Shown: positions 1,915 through 41,533 of the stretch, one piece after another | Numbering within the stretch: the stretch's first letter is position 1 | Layout of the letters: the number at the start of each line of letters is the position of its first letter | Assembly (NCBI GenBank): GCA_000004695.1 | Contig: CM000152.2 | Location: forward strand, 3,808,001-3,872,000 | Direction of reading: 5' to 3' | DNA from: Dictyostelium discoideum | Lineage: Eukaryota | Length of the DNA stretch: 64,000 nt | Program-made: the position numbers and the translations under genes | Notes under the pieces: generated by a model | Databases searched by the model: none | What the model was told of the DNA's origin: nothing | What the model saw: only the letters and a program-made list of their open reading frames with translations

Positions 1915-6700
<4,786 letters not shown>

Positions 6701-9627: not shown

Positions 9628-10141
9628 CAAAAAAAAAAAAAACAAAAATCTTTTTGATTTTTTTTTTTTTCCCTAAAAATAGCGAATTACAGATAGTATG
9701 AGTTTCATTAAAACTTCAAAAGTTTAAAAAAATTGTAAACTAATTTTTTTTTTTTTTTTTTCCATTTGCAAAATTGATTTTTTTTTTTTTTTATCCATTT
9801 GCAAAACTGATTTTTTTTTTTTTTTTTTTCCCATATTCAACACTTGCCTGCACCCGAGATTCTATCTTTTAAAAATTAATTTCCCACAAACAAAACAAAA
9901 TCTCAAATTTAAAATTAAAAAAAAAAAAAATAAATAAAAAAAAAATAAATAAATAAATAAATAAATAAAATTTTAAATTTTATAAATAGATAAATGAAAA
10001 TAAAATAAAAGATTATTTTTAATAAAAAAAAAAAATTTTAATGGGTGCGATTTTTATTTTAAATAATTTATTATTACAATTGAAGTAATATTTAAAGTAT
10101 ATATATTATGTATATTATATATGTGTGTATATATTATATTA

Positions 10142-10512
10142 TCAACTACATGAACCTCCTGAACCTTTACCACCATGACCATGTGGTCCATGACCATGAC
10201 CATGATTATGTGATCCGCCTTTTCCTCCACAACTACCACCACTTGATTTAGCTCCACCGGTTAAATCACCACAACCACCACTACCACTACCACTACCACT
10301 ACCACAACTACCACTACCAACACTACATGCAATTGAATTTGAACCCATACTTGTTCCAATACCAAATGATGCCAAACTAGATTTTGAACTTGTCATTGAA
10401 CTTGACATTGATGAGATTGATGCTAATAATTTATTAATTTAATTAGTATTTAATTTATTTTTAAAAAAAAAAGGCAAATAAAATTTTTTATATACTTACA
10501 AAAGAGTGTCAT
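10142..10512 (-). CDS. hssA/B-like (2C/7E family) small Gly/Ser/Cys/His-rich protein, copy 1, 97 aa: join(10142..10422,10500..10512)
   Basis: A 13-nt first exon ATGACACTCTTTT is followed by GTAAGT. The 77-bp intron ends TTATTAG. The second exon reads in frame: [97 protein letters not shown]. The MTLFSSISS... start, NSIAC and DLTGG motifs match my memory of Dictyostelium HssA/B-like proteins. Confidence 0.65.
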
Positions 10513-11093
10513 TTTATTTTATTTTTTAAAATTTAATTTTAATTTGATTTGATTTGATTTATTTATATTATAATTCGTTTAATGAAAAAAAAAAAAAAGA
10601 ATAACTTTAAATTTATACTTTTTTTTTAAAGAATATTAAATCAAATCTCTTTTTTAAAAAATTATTCTTTTGTAAACTAACCAATTTTTTACAAATGTCA
10701 AAGTCTAAAAGGTTACCACAAAATTCAAATAAAGAATACATGGTTTAGTTTTTTCATTTATTTTTGTAAATATTCATTTTTTGACAGATTATACAAAAAC
10801 GGATAAAAATATATAAAATTGAAATTTCTAATTGATAAACAAATTTGTTTTTATTCAGATATAACACATCCCACAATTTTTATTAAATATTAAATAATTT
10901 ATGGTGGTAATGAAATAATAAAAAATAAACCCATAGAATATATAACAATACCCACATTTCAATTAATTTTAATTTTAACCTAAAAATAATATTCATGACC
11001 AACTTACAATTCAATTTTAATTTTATTTTGAAAAACATAACAACAAACCATTTGTATAATTTTAATTTTTTTATTAATAATAGAATCAAAAGG

Positions 11094-11131
<38 letters not shown>

Positions 11132-11175
11132 TATATTATATTAAATCTTTAATTTTATTGGTTTTAATTCATTTT

Positions 11176-11640
11176 TAGTTTTTTTTGATTTCTAATTATT
11201 TTTTATAAATGATATCATCTTCTTTTCAAAATGCCATAGTGCATAGATAAATCTTTCCTTTCTCTGACATTTGATTCGAATTGATTCATTTTATTTGTTT
11301 AGAAATAATATTAATATGATGATGATCAACCTTTCTTTATGATATAGTGCATAGATAAATCTTTCCTTTCTCTATCATTTTAATGGTATTGATTCATATA
11401 TTATCTAGATTATAATTGAATTTTAACCATTTTTAATTGGTAAAATTACTCTATAAAAAAAAATAATAAAGTTAGATTAAAATTGTTATTTTTTTATTTA
11501 TTAATTTTTTTTTATGGCTTTACCTTTTTTATATTTTTAAAGTATCAATCAACTATTATCTAAACCTTTTTAATTGTTAGAGTTAGATTTATTTTATATT
11601 TGTTATTTTTTTTTTACATTTGTATAAATGATTTTTTCAA
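11176..11640. repeat. Copy of the dispersed ~0.45 kb repeat family, in tandem unit 1. It contains two ~35-bp core motifs ATAGTGCATAGATAAATCTTTCCTTTCTCT(G/A)NCATTTGATT
   Basis: Shares long identical stretches (GATATCATCTTCTTTTCAAAATGCCATAGTGCATAGATAAATCTTTCC..., TTTGGTAAAATTACTCTATAAAAAA..AATAATAAAGTTAGATTAAAATTG) with 13296-13760, 15125-15660 and 31298-31850. Confidence 0.8.
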
Positions 11641-11710
11641 AAAACTTTCTATTTATACTCGATCATTTATCATAATAAAATTTAATTTTTATTTTTAGAT
11701 TTATTTATAA

Positions 11711-11760
<50 letters not shown>

Positions 11761-11785
11761 TGGTTAATCAACTAGAAAAATAAAA

Positions 11786-11792
11786 AAATTAA

Positions 11793-11831
<39 letters not shown>

Positions 11832-11880
11832 CTAAATAAATAAATAAACAAATAAATAAACAAATGAATTAATAAATAAA
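11786..11880. repeat. (AAAT)n microsatellite, specific to tandem unit 1
   Basis: Direct reading. It accounts for part of the length difference between units. Confidence 0.85.
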
Positions 11881-12211
11881 AAATAATAAATAATAAATTT
11901 CAGTATCAAGGTTCAAATTCTGTAGTAAATCTTAAGAGTACTACTGGTGAAAGGATTGATCAAGTTTAGGAAGAAGTTGATAATTATTTAATACAGGATT
12001 AAAATAATTTTTAAAATTCCCAAATAAACAAGATTTAATGGTGCAATGAAATAGTACATTTTTAAATTTAATATATAGATAATTAAAAATAAAAATAAAA
12101 TATTATTTTGAAAAAAAAAAAAAATTAAAATAGGAGCGATTTTTATTTTAAATAATTTATTATTACAATTGAAGTAATATTTAAAGTATATATATGTGTG
12201 TATATATTATA

Positions 12212-12578
12212 TTAACAACTACATGAACCTCCTGAACCTTTACCACCATGACCATGTGGTCCATGACCATTACCATGGCCATGATTATGAGGTCCACCTT
12301 TTCCTCCACAACTACCACCACTTGATTTAGCTCCACCGGTTAAATCACCACAACCACCACTACCACTACCACAACCACCACCACCACTACCGACACTACA
12401 TGCAATTGAATTTGAACCCATACTTGTTCCACTACCAAATGATGAGAAACTAGATCTTGAGCTTGTCATTGAACTTGACATTGATGAGATTGATGCTAAT
12501 AATTTATTAATTTAATTAGTAATTTAAAAAAAAAAAAAAGTAAATAAAATTTTTTAAAAACTTACAAAAGAGTGTCAT
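12212..12578 (-). CDS. hssA/B-like small Gly/Ser-rich protein, copy 2: join(12212..12495,12566..12578)
   Basis: Same 2-exon structure as copy 1 (MTLF | [55 protein letters not shown]...[21 protein letters not shown]). The upstream (GATTT)n pentamer run is conserved. Confidence 0.65.
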
Positions 12579-12767: not shown

Positions 12768-13295
12768 ATTTTAATTATTCTTATTTGTAAATAAACCAAT
12801 TTTTTACAAATGTCAAAGTCAAAAAGGTTACCACAAAATTCAAATAAAACAAAAAACTTGGTTTTATTATTTTATTTATTTTGTAAATATTCATTTTTTG
12901 ACAGATTATACAAAAACGGATAAAAATATATAAAATTGAAATTTCTAATTGATAAACAAATTAGTTTTTATTCAAATATACCACATCCCACAATTTTTAT
13001 TAAATATTAAATAATTTATGGTGGTAATGAAATAATAAAAAATAAACCCATAGAATATATAACAATACCCCCATTTCAATTAATTTTAATTTTAACCTAA
13101 AAATAATATTCATGACCAACTTACAATTCAATTTTAATTTTATTTTGAAAAACATAACAACAAACCATTTGTATAATTTTAATTTTTTTATTAATAATAG
13201 AATCAAAAGAAAATTTAAAAAAAAAAAAAATAAAATAAAATTTATTTTATTTTATTAAACCTTTTTAATTTAATTATTGAGTTTTATTTTATTTT

Positions 13296-13760
13296 TAGTT
13301 TTTGATTTCTAATTTTTTATTTAAAAATGACATCATCTTCTTTTCAAAATGCCATAGTTCATAGATAAATCTTTCCTTTATCTGACATTTGATTTGAATT
13401 GATTCATTTTATTTGTTTAGAAATAATATTAATATGATGATGATCAACCTTTCTTTATGATATAGTGCATAGATAAATCTTTCCTTTCTATCATTTTAAT
13501 GGTTTTGATTCATATATTATATTTTCTAGATTATAATATAAACCATTTTTATTAGGTAAAATTACTCTATAAAAAATAATAATAAAGTTAGATTTAAATT
13601 GTTATTTATTTTTTTATTTTATTTTTTTTATTTTACATTTTTTTATATTTTAAACTATCAATGAACTATTATCTAAACCTTTTTAATTGTTAGAGTTAGA
13701 TTTATTTTCTATTTGTTATTTTTTTTTTTACATTTGTATAAATGATTATTTTTTTTTTTT
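13296..13760. repeat. Copy of the dispersed repeat, in tandem unit 2
   Basis: Same motifs as 11176-11640. Confidence 0.8.
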
Positions 13761-14027
13761 TTTTACTGGTGAAAGGATTGATCAAGTTTAGGAAGAAGTT
13801 AATAAATATTTAATACAGAATTAAAATAATTTTTAATATTCCCAAATAAACAAGATTTAATGGTGCAATGAAATAGTACTTTTTTTAATTTTAATATATA
13901 GATAAATAAAAATAAAAATAAAATATTATTTTTAAAAAAAAATTTAAATAGGAGCGATTTTTATTTTAAATAATTTATTATTACAATTGAAGTAATATTT
14001 AAAGTATATATATGTGTATATATTATA

Positions 14028-14398
14028 TTAACAACTACATGAACCTCCTGAACCTTTACCACCATGACCATGTGGTCCATGACCATGTCCATGACCATGA
14101 TTATGAGATCCACCTTTTCCTCCACAACTACCACCACTTGATTTAGCTCCACCGGTTAAATCACCACAACCACCACTACCACTACCACTACCACAACTAC
14201 CACTACCTACACTACATGCAATTGAATTTGAACCCATACTTGTTCCACTACCAAATGATGCGATACTTGATCTTGAACTTGTCATAGAGCTTGACATTGA
14301 TGAGATTGATGCTAATAATTTAATAAATTAATTAGTAATTAAATTATTTAAAAAAAAAAAGGTAAACAAAATTTTATATACTTACAAAAGAGTGTCAT
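14028..14398 (-). CDS. hssA/B-like small Gly/Ser-rich protein, copy 3: join(14028..14311,14386..14398)
   Basis: Same structure (MTLF | [55 protein letters not shown]...). GTAAGT donor at 14385..14380. Acceptor CTAATAA on the plus strand. Confidence 0.65.
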
Positions 14399-14564: not shown

Positions 14565-15124
14565 TTCTAATTGTAAATTAACCAATTTTTTACAAATGTC
14601 AAAGTCAAAAAGGTTACCACAATATTCAAATAAAACAAAATACTTTGTTTAGTTATTTTATTTATTTTTGTAAATATTCGTTTTTGACAGATTATACAAA
14701 AACGGATAAAAATATATAAAATTGAAATTTCTAATTGATAAACAAATTAGTTTTTATTCAACGAAACCACATCCCAAAATTTTTATTAAATATTAAATAA
14801 TTAAATAATTTATGGTGGTAATGGAATAATAAAAATAAACCCATAGAAAATATAACAATACCCCCATTCCAATTAATTTTAATTTTAACCTAAAAATAAT
14901 ATTAATGACCAACTTACTATTCAATTTTAATTTTATTTTGAAAAACATAAAAACAAACCATTTGTATAATTTTAATTTTTTATTAATAGATATTTTAATT
15001 TTTTAATAGATATTTTAGAATTAAAAAGAAATAGTTTTTTAAATTAATTTAATTGATATTTTAAACAATAATGAAAAAAAAAAAACATATTTTATTAAAC
15101 CTTTTTAATTTTTTATTTTATTTT

Positions 15125-15447
15125 TAGTTTTATTTGATTTCTAATTATTTATTTATAAAATGATATCATCTTCTTTTCAAAATGCCATAGTGCATAGATA
15201 AATCTTTCCTTTCTCTGACATTTGATTAGAATTGATTCATTTTATTTGTTTAGAAATAATATTTAAATGATCAACCTTTCTTCATGATTTAGTGCATAGA
15301 TAAATCTTTCCTTTCTCTATCATTTGATTGGTATTGATATTATCTAGATTATAATTGAAAGTAAACCATTTTTATTTGGTAAAATTACTATAAAAAAATA
15401 ATATTAAAGTTAGATTTAAATTGTTATTTATTTATTTATTTATATAT

Positions 15448-15512
<65 letters not shown>

Positions 15513-15660
15513 TTTTTTTAATAACTTTACCTTTTTTTATTATATTTTTAACTGTCTATCAACTTTTATCTAAACCTTTTTAATTGTTAGAGTTAGATTT
15601 ATTTTCTATTTGTTATTTTTTTTTTTACATTTGTATAAATGATTATTTTTTTTTTTTTTC
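15125..15660. repeat. Copy of the dispersed repeat, in tandem unit 3, including an (ATTT)n tract at 15421..15510
   Basis: Same motifs as 11176-11640, plus an (ATTT)~22 expansion. Confidence 0.8.
15421..15510. repeat. (ATTT)n microsatellite, ~22 units
   Basis: Direct reading. Confidence 0.9.
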
Positions 15661-15988
15661 AAAAAACTTTCTATTTAAACTCTATCATTTATCAATTTTT
15701 TAAATTATTTGAAATTAAAAAAAGGAAATTTTACTATTTAAAGTAAAATCCAATAGCCAAAGAGAAAATTTCCATATCTGGAAATATTCAAAATAAGAAA
15801 ATGGTAAAAGGGTAATTTAATATATTCTTAGTTTCTTAATAAAATGTAATTTTTATTTTTAGATTTATTAAAAAAAAAATAAAAAAATAAAAAAAAAAAA
15901 AAAAAATATGATAACATATTTTATGATTATTTGTTTGAGAAATAAAATAATAAAAAATCACAAATAAAAAGAATTCTTAATTTATTTT

Positions 15989-16020
<32 letters not shown>

Positions 16021-16494
16021 AAAATGATTAAAAAGTGTTTTTTTTTTTTTTTTTATTTGTGTCACAATAAAAGTTTAAAATAAATGCTTAAAAATAATTA
16101 TATTTAAATAGTTTTAAAGTTTTAAATGCAAAACTTTAAATTTTTTTTATTTTTATTTTTTTTTTATTTATATATATTTAAATAATTAATAAAAAAAAAA
16201 TAAAAAAATGATCATTTTAGGTTTATTTCTAATTTTGGTTCATCTTTTTTTTTTTTTTTGGTACAATAAAACTTGTTACTGAACATACTGAAAGAACTTT
16301 GATGAGCCAATGGATGATTCGTAAAGTAGTAATCGATTAATATCCAATACCTATACTTTAGAGTGTGTTTTCTATCTCTTTGCTTTTTTTTTTTTTGATT
16401 TTTTTTTTTTTTTAATTTTTTTTTTTTTTTTGATTTTTTTTTTTTTTTTTTTTTTAATTACTATTTAATATCTAAAAATATAATAAAGCATTAA

Positions 16495-17255: not shown

Positions 17256-17461
17256 ATGATATCTCAATCTTCACCAGATGCATACAATTTCATGAAACCA
17301 TATATACCAAAAAGAGAAAACAGTTTCAAAGCAATCTTCATTCCAAATGATAGTAAAGTTGAACCTTTTGAAATTCATTTATCAAAAGATAAATTTTATG
17401 ATGAGTAATATCTTTTTAAAATTAAATTAAATTAAATCATCATTTTTAAAATACTAATAAT

Positions 17462-17513
<52 letters not shown>

Positions 17514-19473
17514 ATTTAATAGAGTTACAGAAATTTTAAATGGAAAAGGATTAAGAAAAGAATTAATATCAAAGAATGATGTTTCATATTATTTTTACCC
17601 AGATTGTAAAGTTGGTGATATTAAACCAATAAATGAAAGAGCATTGAAAACCAAGAAAAAGAAAGCATTGGGTGGTGACGCAGTGTTGATTAGGGGAAGC
17701 ATCGATAGGGTTGAGAGAGATTTAACTTATGAACAATTTTTAAGATTTGAAGAATTCTTTTCACCAAAACAAAGAGTATTCGATTTTGAAAATAATTATG
17801 ATGGTACGGGTTCCACTGATTTACTCTCAGTTTTATTTGAAAGTTCAACATGGAATTATAAAATTGATAAAGTTCAAAATGGCAGATACTTAAAGTTTCC
17901 TAATAATGCTGTTACAACCGATTGGAAGTTTGAGAAGAAACAACCTCATTCAATATTGAATGAATACAAAGCTGTCATTCAAGATACAACAATTTCAATT
18001 GACTCATTTTCAATTGGTCCTAATAATAGTTCACCATTCTTTTCAACTGCGACAATTAACAATGGTCCATTGGTAATCTATTCAAATCTTACAAAGAAAA
18101 AAGATGAATCAACTCATAATGTTTGTCATCGTGTTTTATATTATTTAGTAATTTTACAACAAAGATTATTAGGTTTTTCAAATGATGATAACAATATTGA
18201 AAATGATAAAAATAATTTTAGTTTTAAAAATGATTATTTAATTGAATTTAAAGAATTTGAAGAATTTGAAAATTTAAAAAATAATAATAATGATAATAAT
18301 AATGAAAATACTACAATTACTACAACAACAACAACAACAACAACATTAACAACAGTAAATACAACAAAAAATAATACAGAATTAAAAAAAAAATCAATAA
18401 TTGAAAAAACTGAAAATTTTATTAAAAATATTAAAAATGATAATGATATTATAACATTTTATGGTATTAAAATGAATAGAAATAATAAAGTAATTTATGT
18501 TACAAAAGGTATATCAAATATTGTTATAAATGAAAATGATAAAAAGAAAAAAGTAGAATTTGGTGATGAAGTTGTTGTTTCATTTTCATATTATTTAGCT
18601 GATGGGAAATTGGTAAAGGATCAAACTGAATTAACCATAACAGTTGGTGAATCTCAAAGTTGTATAGATGGTGTACACCATTCGTTAATGGAAATGCATG
18701 AAGGTGATTTAGTATTATCCATCGTTCATTCGAAATATGCGTATGGTGAAAAAGGTATAATCTTTGGTGACATTGATTTTTGTAATACTCTAGTGCCACC
18801 ATCATCAACCTTGGGTATTTTAATAGAACTATTAGAGATTAAACATCGTTCAAAATTGACAAACACTAAAGTTTCATCATTATCATTGAATGAGAAAATC
18901 GATTTAATTAAATCAAATAATAAAGAGGCCAAAGAGCATTTCTTGCGTAAAGATTATTTTAAAGCTTTGAAAATCTATAGAGGTAATAGAGTCTTATGTA
19001 ATCTTGACCTTATTGGTAAAGTCGATAGCGATGACCTATGGGACGAAATTAAATTATTGGCAGCTCAAACCCACACAAATCTCGCACTTTGCTATTTGGC
19101 CATGCCTTCACCACATCATCAAAGAATCATTGAATATTGTAATGAATCAATAGTTTTCGAAGAGACTAGTAAAGCTTATAGATTATCATCAGATGCATAT
19201 AAAGAATTAAATAATATTGAAAAAGCAATTGAGCAAATGGAAATTGCTAAAGAAATCGATTTCAATATTGATGATCATTTTAAAAGTAATCCAGAAAATA
19301 AAAATAAAATTAATCCAGTGCAAACTCTCTCTCAATCTCAATATATTCAAAAGATTAATTCTTTAAAAAAATTGGAAAGAAAAGAACTTGAAGATGAAAA
19401 AAATGTTTATAAAAATATTTTAAAAAATTTAGAATCTTCTGGTTTTGATCTTGCAAAAGATGATCATTTTTAA
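17256..19473 (+). CDS. FKBP-type peptidyl-prolyl isomerase domain protein with C-terminal TPR repeats, ~699 aa: join(17256..17404,17523..19473)
   Basis: ATG at 17256 (MISQSSPDAYNFMKPYIPK...). GTAATA donor after ...FYDE. The 118-bp A-rich intron ends TTTAATAG and exon 2 continues in frame. FKBP domain GDEVVVSFSYYLADGKLVKDQTELTITVGESQSCIDGVHHSLMEMHEGDLVLSIVHSKYAYGEKGI. TPR-like region EAKEHFLRKDYFKALKIYRG...NLALCYLAM. Confidence 0.7.
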
Positions 19474-30277: not shown

Positions 30278-30939
30278 TTTAATATTTATTATTAATTATT
30301 ATTTATTATTATTATTATAATAGTTTTAATATTTACTTTAATAATTGAACTGCTGATAAAACAAATGATAAATTACTAATAATAAAACCTGATACTATAA
30401 TACAATCACTAAATGATAGTGAATGAATAAATGAAAAACTATTTAAAGCTAATAATAATAATAATAATAAAAATATTAGTAAATTAGAATTATTTAATTT
30501 TGTACTTATATAGGTATAGTTATTGTTTTTATAATAAGAAAAAATTACCTTTTCCAACAATATTCATTAATAAAGGGAATAAAGGAAAAAATGCATGATT
30601 TTGTTCATGTTCATAACCAAATTCAGCGATTCTAATGAAATAGATACTATCCCATTTAACAAAAATTCTTTTAATAAGGAAATTTACAATTGGTGATGTA
30701 TTTGAATGATCTTTTAAATTTGATATTGATGATTTTTCGTCATTTAAAATTAAAGAGGAGTCATTTGGTTCCTTTAATGGTGATAATGCATTTATTGATG
30801 TTGAACTATCGAAATTTTCTAATTGTTGTGATACTATTAAACAATAAATCCAAATAATTAATTTACAAATAATTGCAACTTTGATTATTGTATTTCTTTG
30901 TTTTTTATATTTAATTATATTATTATTTAATATTTTCAT
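28784..30939 (-). CDS. GPI mannosyltransferase 2 (PIG-V family), ~635 aa: join(28784..30188,30337..30448,30549..30939)
   Basis: First true ATG at 30939 (MKILNNNIIKYKKQ...); the ORF-track start at 30966 is GTG. Exon 1 has the PIG-V motif KWDSIYFIRIAEFGYEHEQNHAFFPLFPLLM, then a GTAATT donor. Exon 2 ALNSFSFIHSLSFSDCIIVSGFIISNLSFVLSAVQLLK, then a GTAAAT donor. Exon 3 is the large multi-TM ORF with a poly-Asn insert. Confidence 0.75.
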
Positions 30940-31297
30940 TGTTTTTTTCTTTTTTTTTAATTTCACAAAAAATGAAAAAAAAAAAAAATAAAAAAAATAA
31001 AAAAAAAAAAAAAAAAAAAACCAATTTGATATTTATTTTTTATTTATTTTCCTTTTTTTTTTTTTTACTTAACAACGATTTAATTTTATTTAATTTAATT
31101 TTAAAAAGAATTTAGTATAAAAAAATAGAACACCCATAAATACACGAAACGATATAAAATATAAAAAAAATGAATGTAACCATTGAATCTTTTTTTATTT
31201 TTTAATTAATTCAATTCTAGTTGTTCCTCAAAATAAAAAAAAAGTCGATTCTAAAAAATAATAAATGAAAAAAAAATATATTTTATTGGAGCTTTTT

Positions 31298-31651
31298 TAT
31301 AAATTATTTTTAGTTATTTTAATTTATTTTTAGTTTTTTGATTTCAAATTATTTTTATATTAATAAATGATATCATCTTCTTTTCAAAATGCCATAGTGC
31401 ATAGATAAATCTTTCCTTTCTCTGACTTTTGATTAGAATTGATTCATTTTATTTGTTTAGAAATAATGATGATCAACCTTTCTTTATGATATAGTGCATA
31501 GATAAATCTTTCCTTTCTCTATCATTTGATTGGTATTGATTCATATATTATATTATCTAGATTATAATTGAATTTAACCCATTTTTATTTGGTAAAATTA
31601 CTCTATAAAAAAATAATAATAAAGTTAGATTAAAATTGTTTTTTTTTTTAT

Positions 31652-31682
<31 letters not shown>

Positions 31683-31850
31683 TTACTTACCTTTTTTTTT
31701 ATATTCTTAAATAAAAATCAAACTCTAACAATTAAAAAGGTTTAGATAAAAGTTGATTGATAATCTCTAATCTCTAATAATTGACATTAACCATAATATT
31801 ATTGATAAATCTTTCTTTTATTTAACATTTGACTGGTACCTACGTTTAAA
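31298..31850. repeat. Fourth, solitary copy of the dispersed repeat family, located between the divergent PIG-V and ribokinase promoters, with an internal ~55-bp inverted segment
   Basis: 31370-31650 aligns with 11207-11490 (AATGATATCATCTTCTTTTCAAAATGCCATAGTGCATAGATAAATCTTTCCTTTCTCTGAC...). 31703-31757 (AAATCAAACTCTAACAATTAAAAAGGTTTAGATAAAAGTTGATTGATA) is the reverse complement of the unit segment TATCAACTTTTATCTAAACCTTTTTAATTGTTAGAGTTAGATTT. A third core-like motif (GATAAATCTTTCTTTTATTTAACATTTGACTGG) is at 31806-31840. Confidence 0.8.
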
Positions 31851-32027
31851 AATAAAATTTTTGATGAAAAAAAAAATTAAATTATTTTTTTGTTTTTTTT
31901 TTTTTTTTTCAAGTGTTTTAATGTTTTTATCAATTTTTTTTTTTTTTTTTTTACTACGATCAGTTCCCCAATCAGTGATTACAATCCAAAATAAAAAGTC
32001 ACAATCTATAAATCTTCATTTATTTTA

Positions 32028-32058
<31 letters not shown>

Positions 32059-32062
32059 GAAA

Positions 32063-33393
<1,331 letters not shown>

Positions 33394-39721: not shown

Positions 39722-41533
39722 ATGACAGATAAAATTAATAATTTAATTAATCAATGGTTAAAATGGGATAAAAATGAAATTACAAGAAAGGAAATTGAAC
39801 AATTAAAAGAGAATAACAATGAAAAAGAGTTATTAGTTAGATTAGAAGAAAGAATTCAATTTGGTACAGCAGGTTTAAGAGGAGCTATGAGAGCAGGTTT
39901 CTCATGTATGAATGATTTAACAGTTACACAAGCAAGTCAAGGATTATGCGAATATGTCATTGAAACAATTGAACAATCAAAGAGTAAAGGTATAGTAATT
40001 GGATATGATGGTCGTCACAATTCGTACATTTTCGCTAAAATCACTGCAGCAACATTCAAATCAAAGGGATTCAAAGTTTATTTATTCTCTCATATTGTAC
40101 CAACACCATACGTTTCATTCGCAGTACCAAATTTGAAGGCGGCAATTGGTGTAATGATTACAGCATCACATAATCCAAAGAACGATAATGGATATAAAGT
40201 GTATTGGGAGACTGGTTGCCAAATTAATACACCACATGATAAAGGAATTTCAAAGAAGATTGACGAAAATTTAGAGCCATGGTCAAATGTAGACGCAACA
40301 TCTGATATTAAATATGGTAATGGTGATGATGGTGAGTCAATGATTGACCCATTGTCAGTGATTACTGAATTGTATAATAAGAATATTAAAGAGTATTCAG
40401 TTGGTTCCAAAATCGAATTGGCAAACGAGCCAATAGTGTATACTGCAATGCATGGTGTTGGTGGTGTTTATGCAAAGAAGGCATTTGAGACATTCCAATT
40501 GAAACCATTCATACCGGTGGCACAACAAATCGAACCAGATGCTGAATTTCCAACTGTCACATACCCAAATCCAGAGGAGGGTAAAGGCGCATTGAAGTTA
40601 TCAATTGAGACAGCAGAGGCAAATAATAGTCGTTTAATTTTAGCAAATGATCCAGATGCCGATCGTTTAGCTGTCGCAGAGAAACTTGCTGATGGTAGTT
40701 GGAAAGTTTTCAATGGTAATGAGATTGGTGTGCTTTTAGCTGACTGGGCTTGGACTAACAGATCTACGTTGACTAAAGGTGGTAGCACATTGGAGAATAA
40801 TAAATACTTTATGATCAATACAGCTGTGTCATCAGCTATGTTAAAGACAATGTCAGAGAAGGAAGGTTTCATTCATCAAGAATGCTTAACTGGTTTTAAA
40901 TGGATTGGTAATGCCGCATACAATGCAATCAATAATAACGACGGTACCACCTTTTTATTTGGATATGAAGAGGCAATTGGTTTTCAATATGGTGATGTCT
41001 CATTCGACAAAGATGGTGTTAGAGCTGCTGCAATCTTTGCTGAATTCGCCCTATCACTCTATAAAAAAGGTAGTTCAGTTCAAGATCATTTAGAATCAAT
41101 GTATAAACGTTATGGTTATCATATTAGTAAGAATCGTTATTTCTTTTGTTATGAACCATCAAAAATGGTTTCAATTTTCAATAAAATTAGAAATGATGGT
41201 AAATATTTAACAAAGTTAGGTGATGATGATGATGAACAATTTACAATCACTCGTATTCGTGATCTTACTACAGGTTATGATAATGGTTATCCAGATTGTA
41301 AGGCAAGATTACCAGTAAGTTCATCAACTCAAATGATTACATTTTATTTTAAGAATGGTGGTATCGCTACATTAAGAGGTAGTGGTACTGAACCAAAATT
41401 AAAATATTATGTTGAAATGATTGGAGAAGTTAAATCTAATGTTGAATCAACACTCACCAAAGCTGTTGAACTTGTTATTAATCAATTATTAAAACCAATT
41501 GAAAATCAATTAGAACCACCAAAAGATGATTAA
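39722..41533 (+). CDS. Phosphoglucomutase-2-like / phosphopentomutase (alpha-D-phosphohexomutase superfamily), 603 aa, single exon
   Basis: Active-site loop [15 protein letters not shown] and metal-binding [15 protein letters not shown] near the N-terminus. Uninterrupted ORF from a true ATG. Possibly the organism's pgmB, but the symbol is not asserted. Confidence 0.85.

Follow-up and report, generated by a model that had tools for sequence, protein, structure and literature searches.

A solitary repeat copy between PIG-V and ribokinase in Dictyostelium discoideum: probable remnant of a segmental duplication from an hssA/2C/7E gene array

The gene clusters of the hssA/2C/7E (sigN) family have highly similar intergenic regions, in which conserved motifs have been read as regulatory, and whole units of gene and intergenic region have been duplicated within them (Vicente et al. 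2008, PMC2257962). A 13-nt first exon is typical of this family of ~100 members (PMC6198379, PMC2257962). Here we describe a repeat associated with one array of the family in an extremely AT-rich, 64-kb stretch of chromosome 3 of D. discoideum AX4 (GenBank contig CM000152.2, positions 3,808,001 to 3,872,000; hereafter the window, to which unlabelled coordinates refer). The array consists of three ~2 kb units, starting at 10047, 12136 and 13954, and each unit has one minus-strand hssA/2C/7E-family (hssl) gene with a 0.5-kb element ~590 bp upstream of its ATG. A further, solitary copy of the element lies between the genes PIG-V and ribokinase. An initial annotation of the window had proposed that this solo copy behaves like a small mobile or recombinogenic element, or like a shared cis-regulatory module. 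We suggest that it is probably a truncated and rearranged remnant of an old dispersed segmental duplication, and not a discrete mobile element.

A BLASTN search of the window with positions 31200-31950 detected three plus-strand matches of 430-460 bp (83-85% identity, E 1e-135 to 1e-141), which confirmed the copies reported in the initial annotation. The solo copy matched unit 1 (31254-31684 against 11099-11535, 84.7%, E=1e-141), unit 2 (31253-31683 against 13222-13646, 84.7%) and unit 3 (31248-31702 against 15058-15487, 82.7%). Outside these matches, the flanks of the AX4 solo copy showed no homology to the unit flanks beyond poly-A runs. In a four-way alignment each copy contained two ~100-bp sub-repeats, R1 and R2, built around the same core. 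The 19-nt core CATAGATAAATCTTTCCTT occurred perfectly eight times, twice in each copy, where 0.09 occurrences were expected by shuffling. One additional occurrence, with three mismatches, was found at 31800. It belongs to a decayed third core in the solo copy, R3 (31801-31838), which had been placed near 31806-31840 and whose similarity to R2 scored 35.5, where the null reached at most 16.1. R3 had no counterpart in the array units; these carry two cores each, and not three as had been thought possible. Downstream of the collinear matches, positions 31715-31762 matched the minus strand of all three units (11590-11543, 13703-13656 and 15600-15555; 46-48 bp, 94-96%). A segment of the solo copy is indeed inverted, as previously claimed, but it lies at 31715-31763 instead of 31703-31757 and is not an exact reverse complement. 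A second, independent assembly of the species (L004; copy 99.2% identical, locus 99.66% identical over 21.9 kb) also contained the solo copy, which is therefore not an assembly artefact.

Loci of two sister species were reached via the PGM2 orthologues in the PGM2 90% cluster, L005 from D. citrinum and L006 from D. firmibasis. The order PIG-V, ribokinase, a large F-box/WD gene and PGM2 was conserved in both. In AX4, 1123 bp separate the ATG codons of PIG-V and ribokinase, but only 210 bp do so in D. citrinum and 233 bp in D. firmibasis, and the AX4 spacer could be aligned with the sister spacers only at its gene-proximal ends. No core, 51-bp segment (the counterpart of the inverted piece) or degenerate motif was found anywhere in these 21.8-kb loci. 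Since the sister spacers measure ~0.2 kb and lack the element, the solo copy is an insertion in the D. discoideum lineage. The comparison indicates that the spacer was ancestrally a minimal bidirectional promoter of ~0.2 kb. The ~220 bp directly left of the array-derived block (31030-31247) were also without a counterpart in the D. citrinum and D. firmibasis spacers, and their source was not found in the sequences compared. Thus either the insertion was composite or there was a second event.

The original extent of the insertion could be seen in ACTFIR (GCA_054859385.1), an assembly labelled D. discoideum that was 7-13% diverged from AX4 across the region. Its array side is referred to as L007 and its solo side as L008. 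The ACTFIR solo copy occupied the same place beside PIG-V with an orthologous left flank, and its homology to the array extended over ~1.3 kb. L008 86-1371 matched window 15064-16423 (73% over 1440 bp) and L007 7877-9150 (78.5%); this stretch comprises the element, what is left of the last array unit beyond it, and DNA distal to the array. The right end therefore differs between the copies, as the ACTFIR copy continues past the element for another ~0.8 kb while that of AX4 ends in the inverted piece. In ACTFIR the ~1.3 kb were followed by a 0.74-kb ACTFIR-specific piece and then by the R3 region and ribokinase-proximal DNA orthologous to AX4. AX4 was collinear with ACTFIR up to 31712, its positions 31715-31763 were the reverse complement of L008 549-600, and collinearity resumed at 31775 (L008 2106). 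These junctions imply that AX4 lost ~1.5 kb and that the segment was inverted exactly at the edge of the deletion, with a homology anchor on its left side only. The 51-bp segment of the ACTFIR solo copy had the array orientation. Because the same orientation was found in all array copies of both lineages, it is ancestral and the AX4 inversion is derived. The copies and their parts were located as follows.

11099-11640, plus strand: element copy of array unit 1, with R1, R2, spacer, T-rich tract and the 51-bp segment in array orientation (BLASTN, four-way alignment).
13222-13760, plus strand: element copy of array unit 2, its R1 motif with two substitutions and its R2 motif with 2 nt deleted (BLASTN, four-way alignment).
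15058-16423, plus strand: element copy of unit 3 with the rest of the unit and array-distal DNA, the stretch duplicated beside PIG-V in ACTFIR.
31030-31247: lineage-specific spacer DNA left of the array-derived block, its right end orthologous to L008 1-51.
31248-31712, plus strand: collinear array-derived part of the solo copy (BLASTN, alignments).
31322-31638, plus strand: core region kept like the array (R1, R2 and a ~95-bp spacer), 93.8-96.4% identical to the AX4 array copies.
31394-31447, plus strand: R1 motif block, with the 30-nt motif ATAGTGCATAGATAAATCTTTCCTTTCTCT at 31394-31423, then (C)TTTTGATTAGAATTGATTCAT, a direct TTGATT repeat.
31491-31544, plus strand: R2 motif block, with the identical 30-nt motif at 31491-31520, then CATTTGATTGGTATTGATTCAT.
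31636-31684, plus strand: poly-T tract, in place of the T-rich or (TTTA)n tract of the array units.
31715-31763, minus strand: inverted segment of 49-51 bp, opposite to all array copies and the ACTFIR solo copy, at the edge of the ~1.5 kb deletion of the AX4 lineage.
31801-31838, plus strand: R3, decayed R2-like third core, present in AX4 and ACTFIR (L008 2124-2165) and not in the array units.

Three side observations concern ACTFIR itself. In syntenic DNA, genes included, it was 87-93% identical to AX4 (L007 and L008 against window 9900-51600); this is a species-level divergence, and the name D. discoideum hence covers deeply split lineages. Its array (L007 3800-9200) contained two hssl genes, with mini-exons at 5997 and 7241, in a layout different from that of AX4, and each lineage has remodelled the array independently. 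The 0.74-kb piece absent from AX4 (L008 1372-2108) was GC-richer and included a near-perfect hairpin at 1724-1838, with arms (1744-1777 and 1784-1817) that were 88% complementary. Generic microRNA (miRNA) precursor models of Rfam scored 38-39 bits on this hairpin, short of their gathering thresholds; a miRNA locus and a hairpin-forming repeat are both conceivable.

The part of the duplicate kept only by ACTFIR gave the age of the duplication. In this extension the solo copy differed by 21.2% from the ACTFIR array flank and by 18.8% from the AX4 array flank, whereas the orthologous array flanks of the two lineages differed by 9.9%. The duplication consequently predates the split between AX4 and ACTFIR. 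The ~300-bp core region looked much younger. Within-genome paralogues differed here by 3.4-7.2%, and the two solo copies, which are positional orthologues, by 7.2%. Solo copies were 93-97% identical to the array copies of their own genome, and in AX4 the solo copy (93.8-96.4%) was about as close to the array copies as these were to each other (92.9-94.8%), with the fewest private substitutions (three, against 4-9 in the array copies). A sliding comparison placed the tract kept alike at AX4 15104-15392, corresponding to L008 140-455. Mismatch counts, with p values for the comparison with the core, were as follows.

ACTFIR paralogues: core 10/303; adjacent duplicated DNA 25/239 (p=0.0012); far duplicated DNA 129/502 (p=6e-19).
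AX4/ACTFIR orthologues: core 15/287; adjacent duplicated DNA 17/239 (p=0.46); far duplicated DNA 65/569 (p=0.003).

Paralogue divergence in ACTFIR was thus 3.3% in the core against 10.5-25.7% in the rest of the duplicate. In a neighbour-joining tree of the core the copies grouped by genome and not by position, with 94.9% bootstrap support for an ACTFIR clade and 0% for a clade of the two solo copies. Two core sites were fixed between the genomes and none united the solo copies. Such clustering implies ectopic gene conversion, and recurrent conversion of short tracts between the solo site and the array is the likeliest process keeping the core alike. In this sense the copy is recombinogenic, as the initial annotation had suggested. 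The simplest reading of these data is recurrent short-tract conversion, with some purifying selection acting on the core as well. R3 agrees with it: this isolated core copy of ~40 bp, too short for efficient conversion, had decayed in both lineages and was ~77% identical between them.

The following history would account for these observations. A stretch of 1.3 kb or more, beginning in a poly-A run immediately left of the element, crossing the last unit and reaching array-distal DNA, was apparently copied from the distal part of the hssA/2C/7E array into the spacer between PIG-V and ribokinase, 16-20 kb from the array and in the same orientation. The insertion is younger than the divergence of D. 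discoideum from D. citrinum and D. firmibasis but older than that of AX4 and ACTFIR. The copied stretch begins and ends in homopolymer runs, which suggests a template switch or fragment capture rather than transposition, and the insertion may thus have been associated with repair or replication. Most of the copy has since drifted or been lost: in ACTFIR its divergence from the parent is 19-26%, and in AX4 ~1.5 kb were deleted and the 51-bp segment was inverted. Meanwhile the core would have been kept like the array by recurrent conversion. Most likely, the solo copy is a passenger that conversion has kept fresh.

Several points weigh against this history. The case for conversion relies on tree topology and only two cleanly fixed sites. 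With a difference of 5.2%, against 11.4% in the far flank (p=0.003), the core is also fairly conserved between orthologous array copies. Selection is therefore confounded with conversion, and strong purifying selection in every copy, without conversion, could account for much of the low divergence. In addition, the array is the only known parent and not a proven one; a third locus could have been the source.

Constraint was clear in the 30-nt motifs, whose register was taken from an alignment of nine sub-repeats. The R1 and R2 consensus sequences were 63% identical overall and ~39% identical outside three blocks, near the chance level for the local base composition. The blocks have a fixed spacing and are identical in the two consensus sequences: the 30-nt motif ATAGTGCATAGATAAATCTTTCCTTTCTCT, CATTTGA and ATTGATTCAT. 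Over the two lineages the 30-nt motif was perfect in 12 of 14 instances, both exceptions being in AX4 unit 2, and among the sequences compared it was found only in copies of the element. Differences specific to R1 or R2 within the motif block (CTGAC against CTATC, TnGAA against TGGTA) were stable in all seven copies. R1 and R2 therefore do not convert each other, and the identity of their motifs is best explained by selection on the sequence. Orthologous array copies showed no change in 60 motif positions, with nearby DNA ~10% diverged. Judged from these alignments, the motifs are evidently conserved beyond neutral expectation and under evolutionary constraint. They most likely serve as sites of protein binding in a putative regulatory module upstream of the array genes. 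The element is not indispensable to every unit, as ACTFIR has one hssl unit without it; ACTFIR also has one element copy without a gene. What we take to be resemblances to GATA, TTGA/STAT, CCAAT and CArG-like sites were not used as support, and a literature search for TTGA/STATa found nothing. The cis-regulatory module proposed in the initial annotation is hence plausible for the array copies, and for the solo copy it is not demonstrated.

Local selection, and not conversion, might preserve the core at the solo site if it had been co-opted after the duplication as an enhancer or promoter module of PIG-V and/or ribokinase. The motifs are clearly constrained, the block lies mid-way in the bidirectional promoter region, and the core has survived in both AX4 and ACTFIR while the remaining duplicate decayed or was deleted. 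The AX4 deletion halts just outside the core, and the low number of private substitutions in the AX4 solo copy points in the same direction. However, selection alone does not predict the clustering by genome or the lineage-fixed sites common to solo and array copies, R3 has decayed freely at the same site, and in the sister species both genes make do with a 0.2-kb spacer that lacks the module. On balance we regard co-option as unlikely. It is more doubtful still that the core is an undescribed developmental enhancer that rewired PIG-V and/or ribokinase in the D. discoideum lineage and was kept by selection and conversion together. If true, this would be a natural and datable enhancer transfer by segmental duplication.

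At the opposite extreme, the duplicate could have been functionless throughout; its cores would then be alike only because complex sequence has fewer indels and because of conversion, and the identity of the motifs would be a by-product. Conversion is indicated at this locus, and the low-complexity, indel-prone flanks inflate apparent divergence. Against this, R1 and R2 do not convert each other and yet have identical 30-nt motifs, the rest of the sub-repeats being ~39% identical; nor does neutrality fit the unchanged motif positions of the orthologous array copies beside ~10% divergence nearby. A wholly neutral duplicate therefore seems improbable.

The element could also be a non-autonomous transposable element, or one end of such an element, with the 30-nt motifs as subterminal transposase-binding sites and the solo copy as a product of transposition. 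Some DNA transposons have subterminal arrays of binding sites, and the internal direct repeats of a ~30-nt motif resemble these. The block did enter a previously empty site, and in ACTFIR one array unit lacks the block and one copy of it lacks a gene. Nonetheless, a search for terminal inverted repeats in 31230-31900 and 11080-11720 found only poly-A/poly-T complementarity, and all core motifs were on one strand. The empty sites aligned only gene-proximally, with the junctions in AT-rich lineage-specific DNA, and no target-site duplication could be defined. The element had no coding potential, with open reading frames (ORFs) of only 7-13 codons and indels between copies that were not multiples of three. 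The ACTFIR homology does not stop at the end of the element and leaves no common right end, which is the behaviour of a segmental duplication and not of a transposable element. A solo long terminal repeat would be expected to have defined ends, a short target-site duplication and copies of equal extent; it was rejected, since the element is bounded on the left by a poly-A run and varies in its right boundary. A TRE5 or TRE3 fragment would be expected 50-150 bp from a transfer RNA (tRNA) gene, and ARAGORN detected no tRNA gene in the 64-kb window. No further copy of the core was found in the window or in L001-L008, ~190 kb of other Dictyostelium DNA, beyond orthologous positions, and a 27-nt core gave no matches to metagenome contigs and prokaryotic genomes. 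The mobile-element reading of the initial annotation is accordingly not supported and is very unlikely.

The absence of the core extended to ~60 kb of other hssA-family arrays. The loci concerned, with genes or arrays of the family, were L001 and L003 from D. discoideum-complex assemblies and L002 from D. firmibasis. The core is thus not a general feature of hssA arrays.

Small non-coding RNA (ncRNA) genes were considered as well. Copies of DUSE, the Dictyostelium upstream sequence element found ahead of ncRNA genes, lie ~60 nt upstream of structured Class I RNAs of ~60 nt with a conserved 11-nt motif (PMC7919456). DUSE-like ACCCAYA heptamers were found 120-200 bp left of the element in both solo and array copies (31132-31138, and also 10929, 10950, 13046 and 14839). 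The heptamer was not enriched in the window (12 found, 10 expected), the one at 31132 was ~190 bp from the core, and no ncRNA model matched downstream of these heptamers; a DUSE-driven ncRNA gene left of the element was therefore rejected. RNA polymerase III A and B boxes were also rejected, as the B-box-like TTCGAA occurred in unit 1 only and its critical C varied among copies. Although R2 contains a C-box-like ATGATGA, R1 a D-box-like CTGA and the left flank a DUSE-like heptamer, it is extremely unlikely that the repeat harbours a small nucleolar RNA, Class I RNA or miRNA gene, given that the two box-like strings are not paired within one sub-repeat, that Rfam gave no match at gathering threshold in the whole window or at E<=10 in 31000-32070, that the predicted fold was not better than shuffles (z -1.3 and -0.8), and that the heptamer is unenriched and wrongly spaced.

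The genes around the solo copy were as the initial annotation had described them. PIG-V (Pfam PF04188) is on the minus strand with its ATG, conserved across species, at 30939, and the divergent ribokinase (PfkB family, PF00294) is on the plus strand with its ATG at 32063. Elsewhere in the window, the ORF 39722-41533 was an exact match to DDB_G0280897, a probable phosphoglucomutase-2 (PGM2), and the spliced model of an FKBP-type gene at 17256-19473 was an exact match to DDB_G0280877. A 138-aa ORF had no match in a protein search. The array genes had a 13-nt first exon and a 70-77-nt intron, and encoded products of 97-98 aa that matched Pfam PF05710.

10142-10512, minus strand: hssA/2C/7E-family gene 1 of the array, first exon 10500-10512 (13 nt), 77-nt intron (splice reconstruction; PF05710 E=3e-12).
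12212-12578 and 14028-14398, minus strand: paralogues of array gene 1 (splice reconstruction).

The three array proteins have His/Gly-rich C-termini. None was present in an exact-sequence look-up in a collection of 15 billion proteins, and a homologue search did not return the proteins themselves, the closest match being HssA/B-like protein 64 (70% identity). These genes may be unannotated or differently modelled in the reference. A (TTTGA)n microsatellite, yielding TTGATT-N4-TTGATT, was found ~30 bp upstream of each array ATG (10544, 12599 and 14425). It echoes the direct TTGATT repeats of the element and was lacking from the hssA-family genes of L001 and L003. Unit 3 had a (TTTA)n expansion (15424-15510) where units 1 and 2 had a short T-rich tract, and unit 2 lacked ~290 bp present right of the element in units 1 and 3 (compare 11650-11940). 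The closest pair of units varied by segment, units 1 and 2 being 99% identical at 10787-11070 and units 2 and 3 96-98% identical at 13954-14186, and this suggests that units of the AX4 array have exchanged sequence.

With the solo copy read as an ordinary segmental duplicate and not a transposon, a candidate new repeat family is struck off. The locus instead provides a small-scale example of a non-coding block transplanted into a compact bidirectional promoter, in which the greater part of the duplicate has decayed or been deleted and a short tract has stayed like its parent 16-20 kb away. The comparison of two diverged lineages made the age of the duplication separable from the apparent youth of the tract. 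The regulation of the hssA/2C/7E family is known only in outline, from GBF boxes and SrfA dependence, and the pair of 30-nt motifs is a testable candidate cis-element for a subset of its ~100 members.

Among known systems, the MITE-like (miniature inverted-repeat) elements thug-S, thug-T and DDT-S are likewise short, non-coding, internally repetitive and intergenic. Unlike them, the element described here lacks terminal inverted repeats and common ends, has no definable target-site duplication and shows no evidence of dispersal in the sequences compared; they were set apart on these features. The sigN clusters (PMC2257962) share the gene family and the 13-nt first exon. The motifs reported from them are G-rich GBF boxes; those of the present element are the AT-rich 30-nt motif and the TTGATT repeats. 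Further differences are that two other hssA-family arrays (L001 and L003) lack the block and that one of its copies is not part of an hssA cluster at all but lies in the promoter region of two housekeeping genes. The closest likeness is to dispersed segmental duplications with interlocus conversion, in which homology runs collinearly into unique flanking DNA, the insertion is missing from outgroups and the duplicated DNA outside the tract diverges no more slowly than orthologues do. As in the concerted evolution of non-tandem repeats, within-genome paralogues are closer than positional orthologues, and this over a short tract only. The typical case differs in that the homogenised tract is here small (~300 bp) and wholly non-coding, its partner is a three-copy tandem array 16-20 kb off, and one lineage carries a deletion and a 51-bp inversion at the edge of the tract. 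The phenomenon is thus of a known kind, dispersed segmental duplication with concerted evolution, of which this is an undescribed instance.

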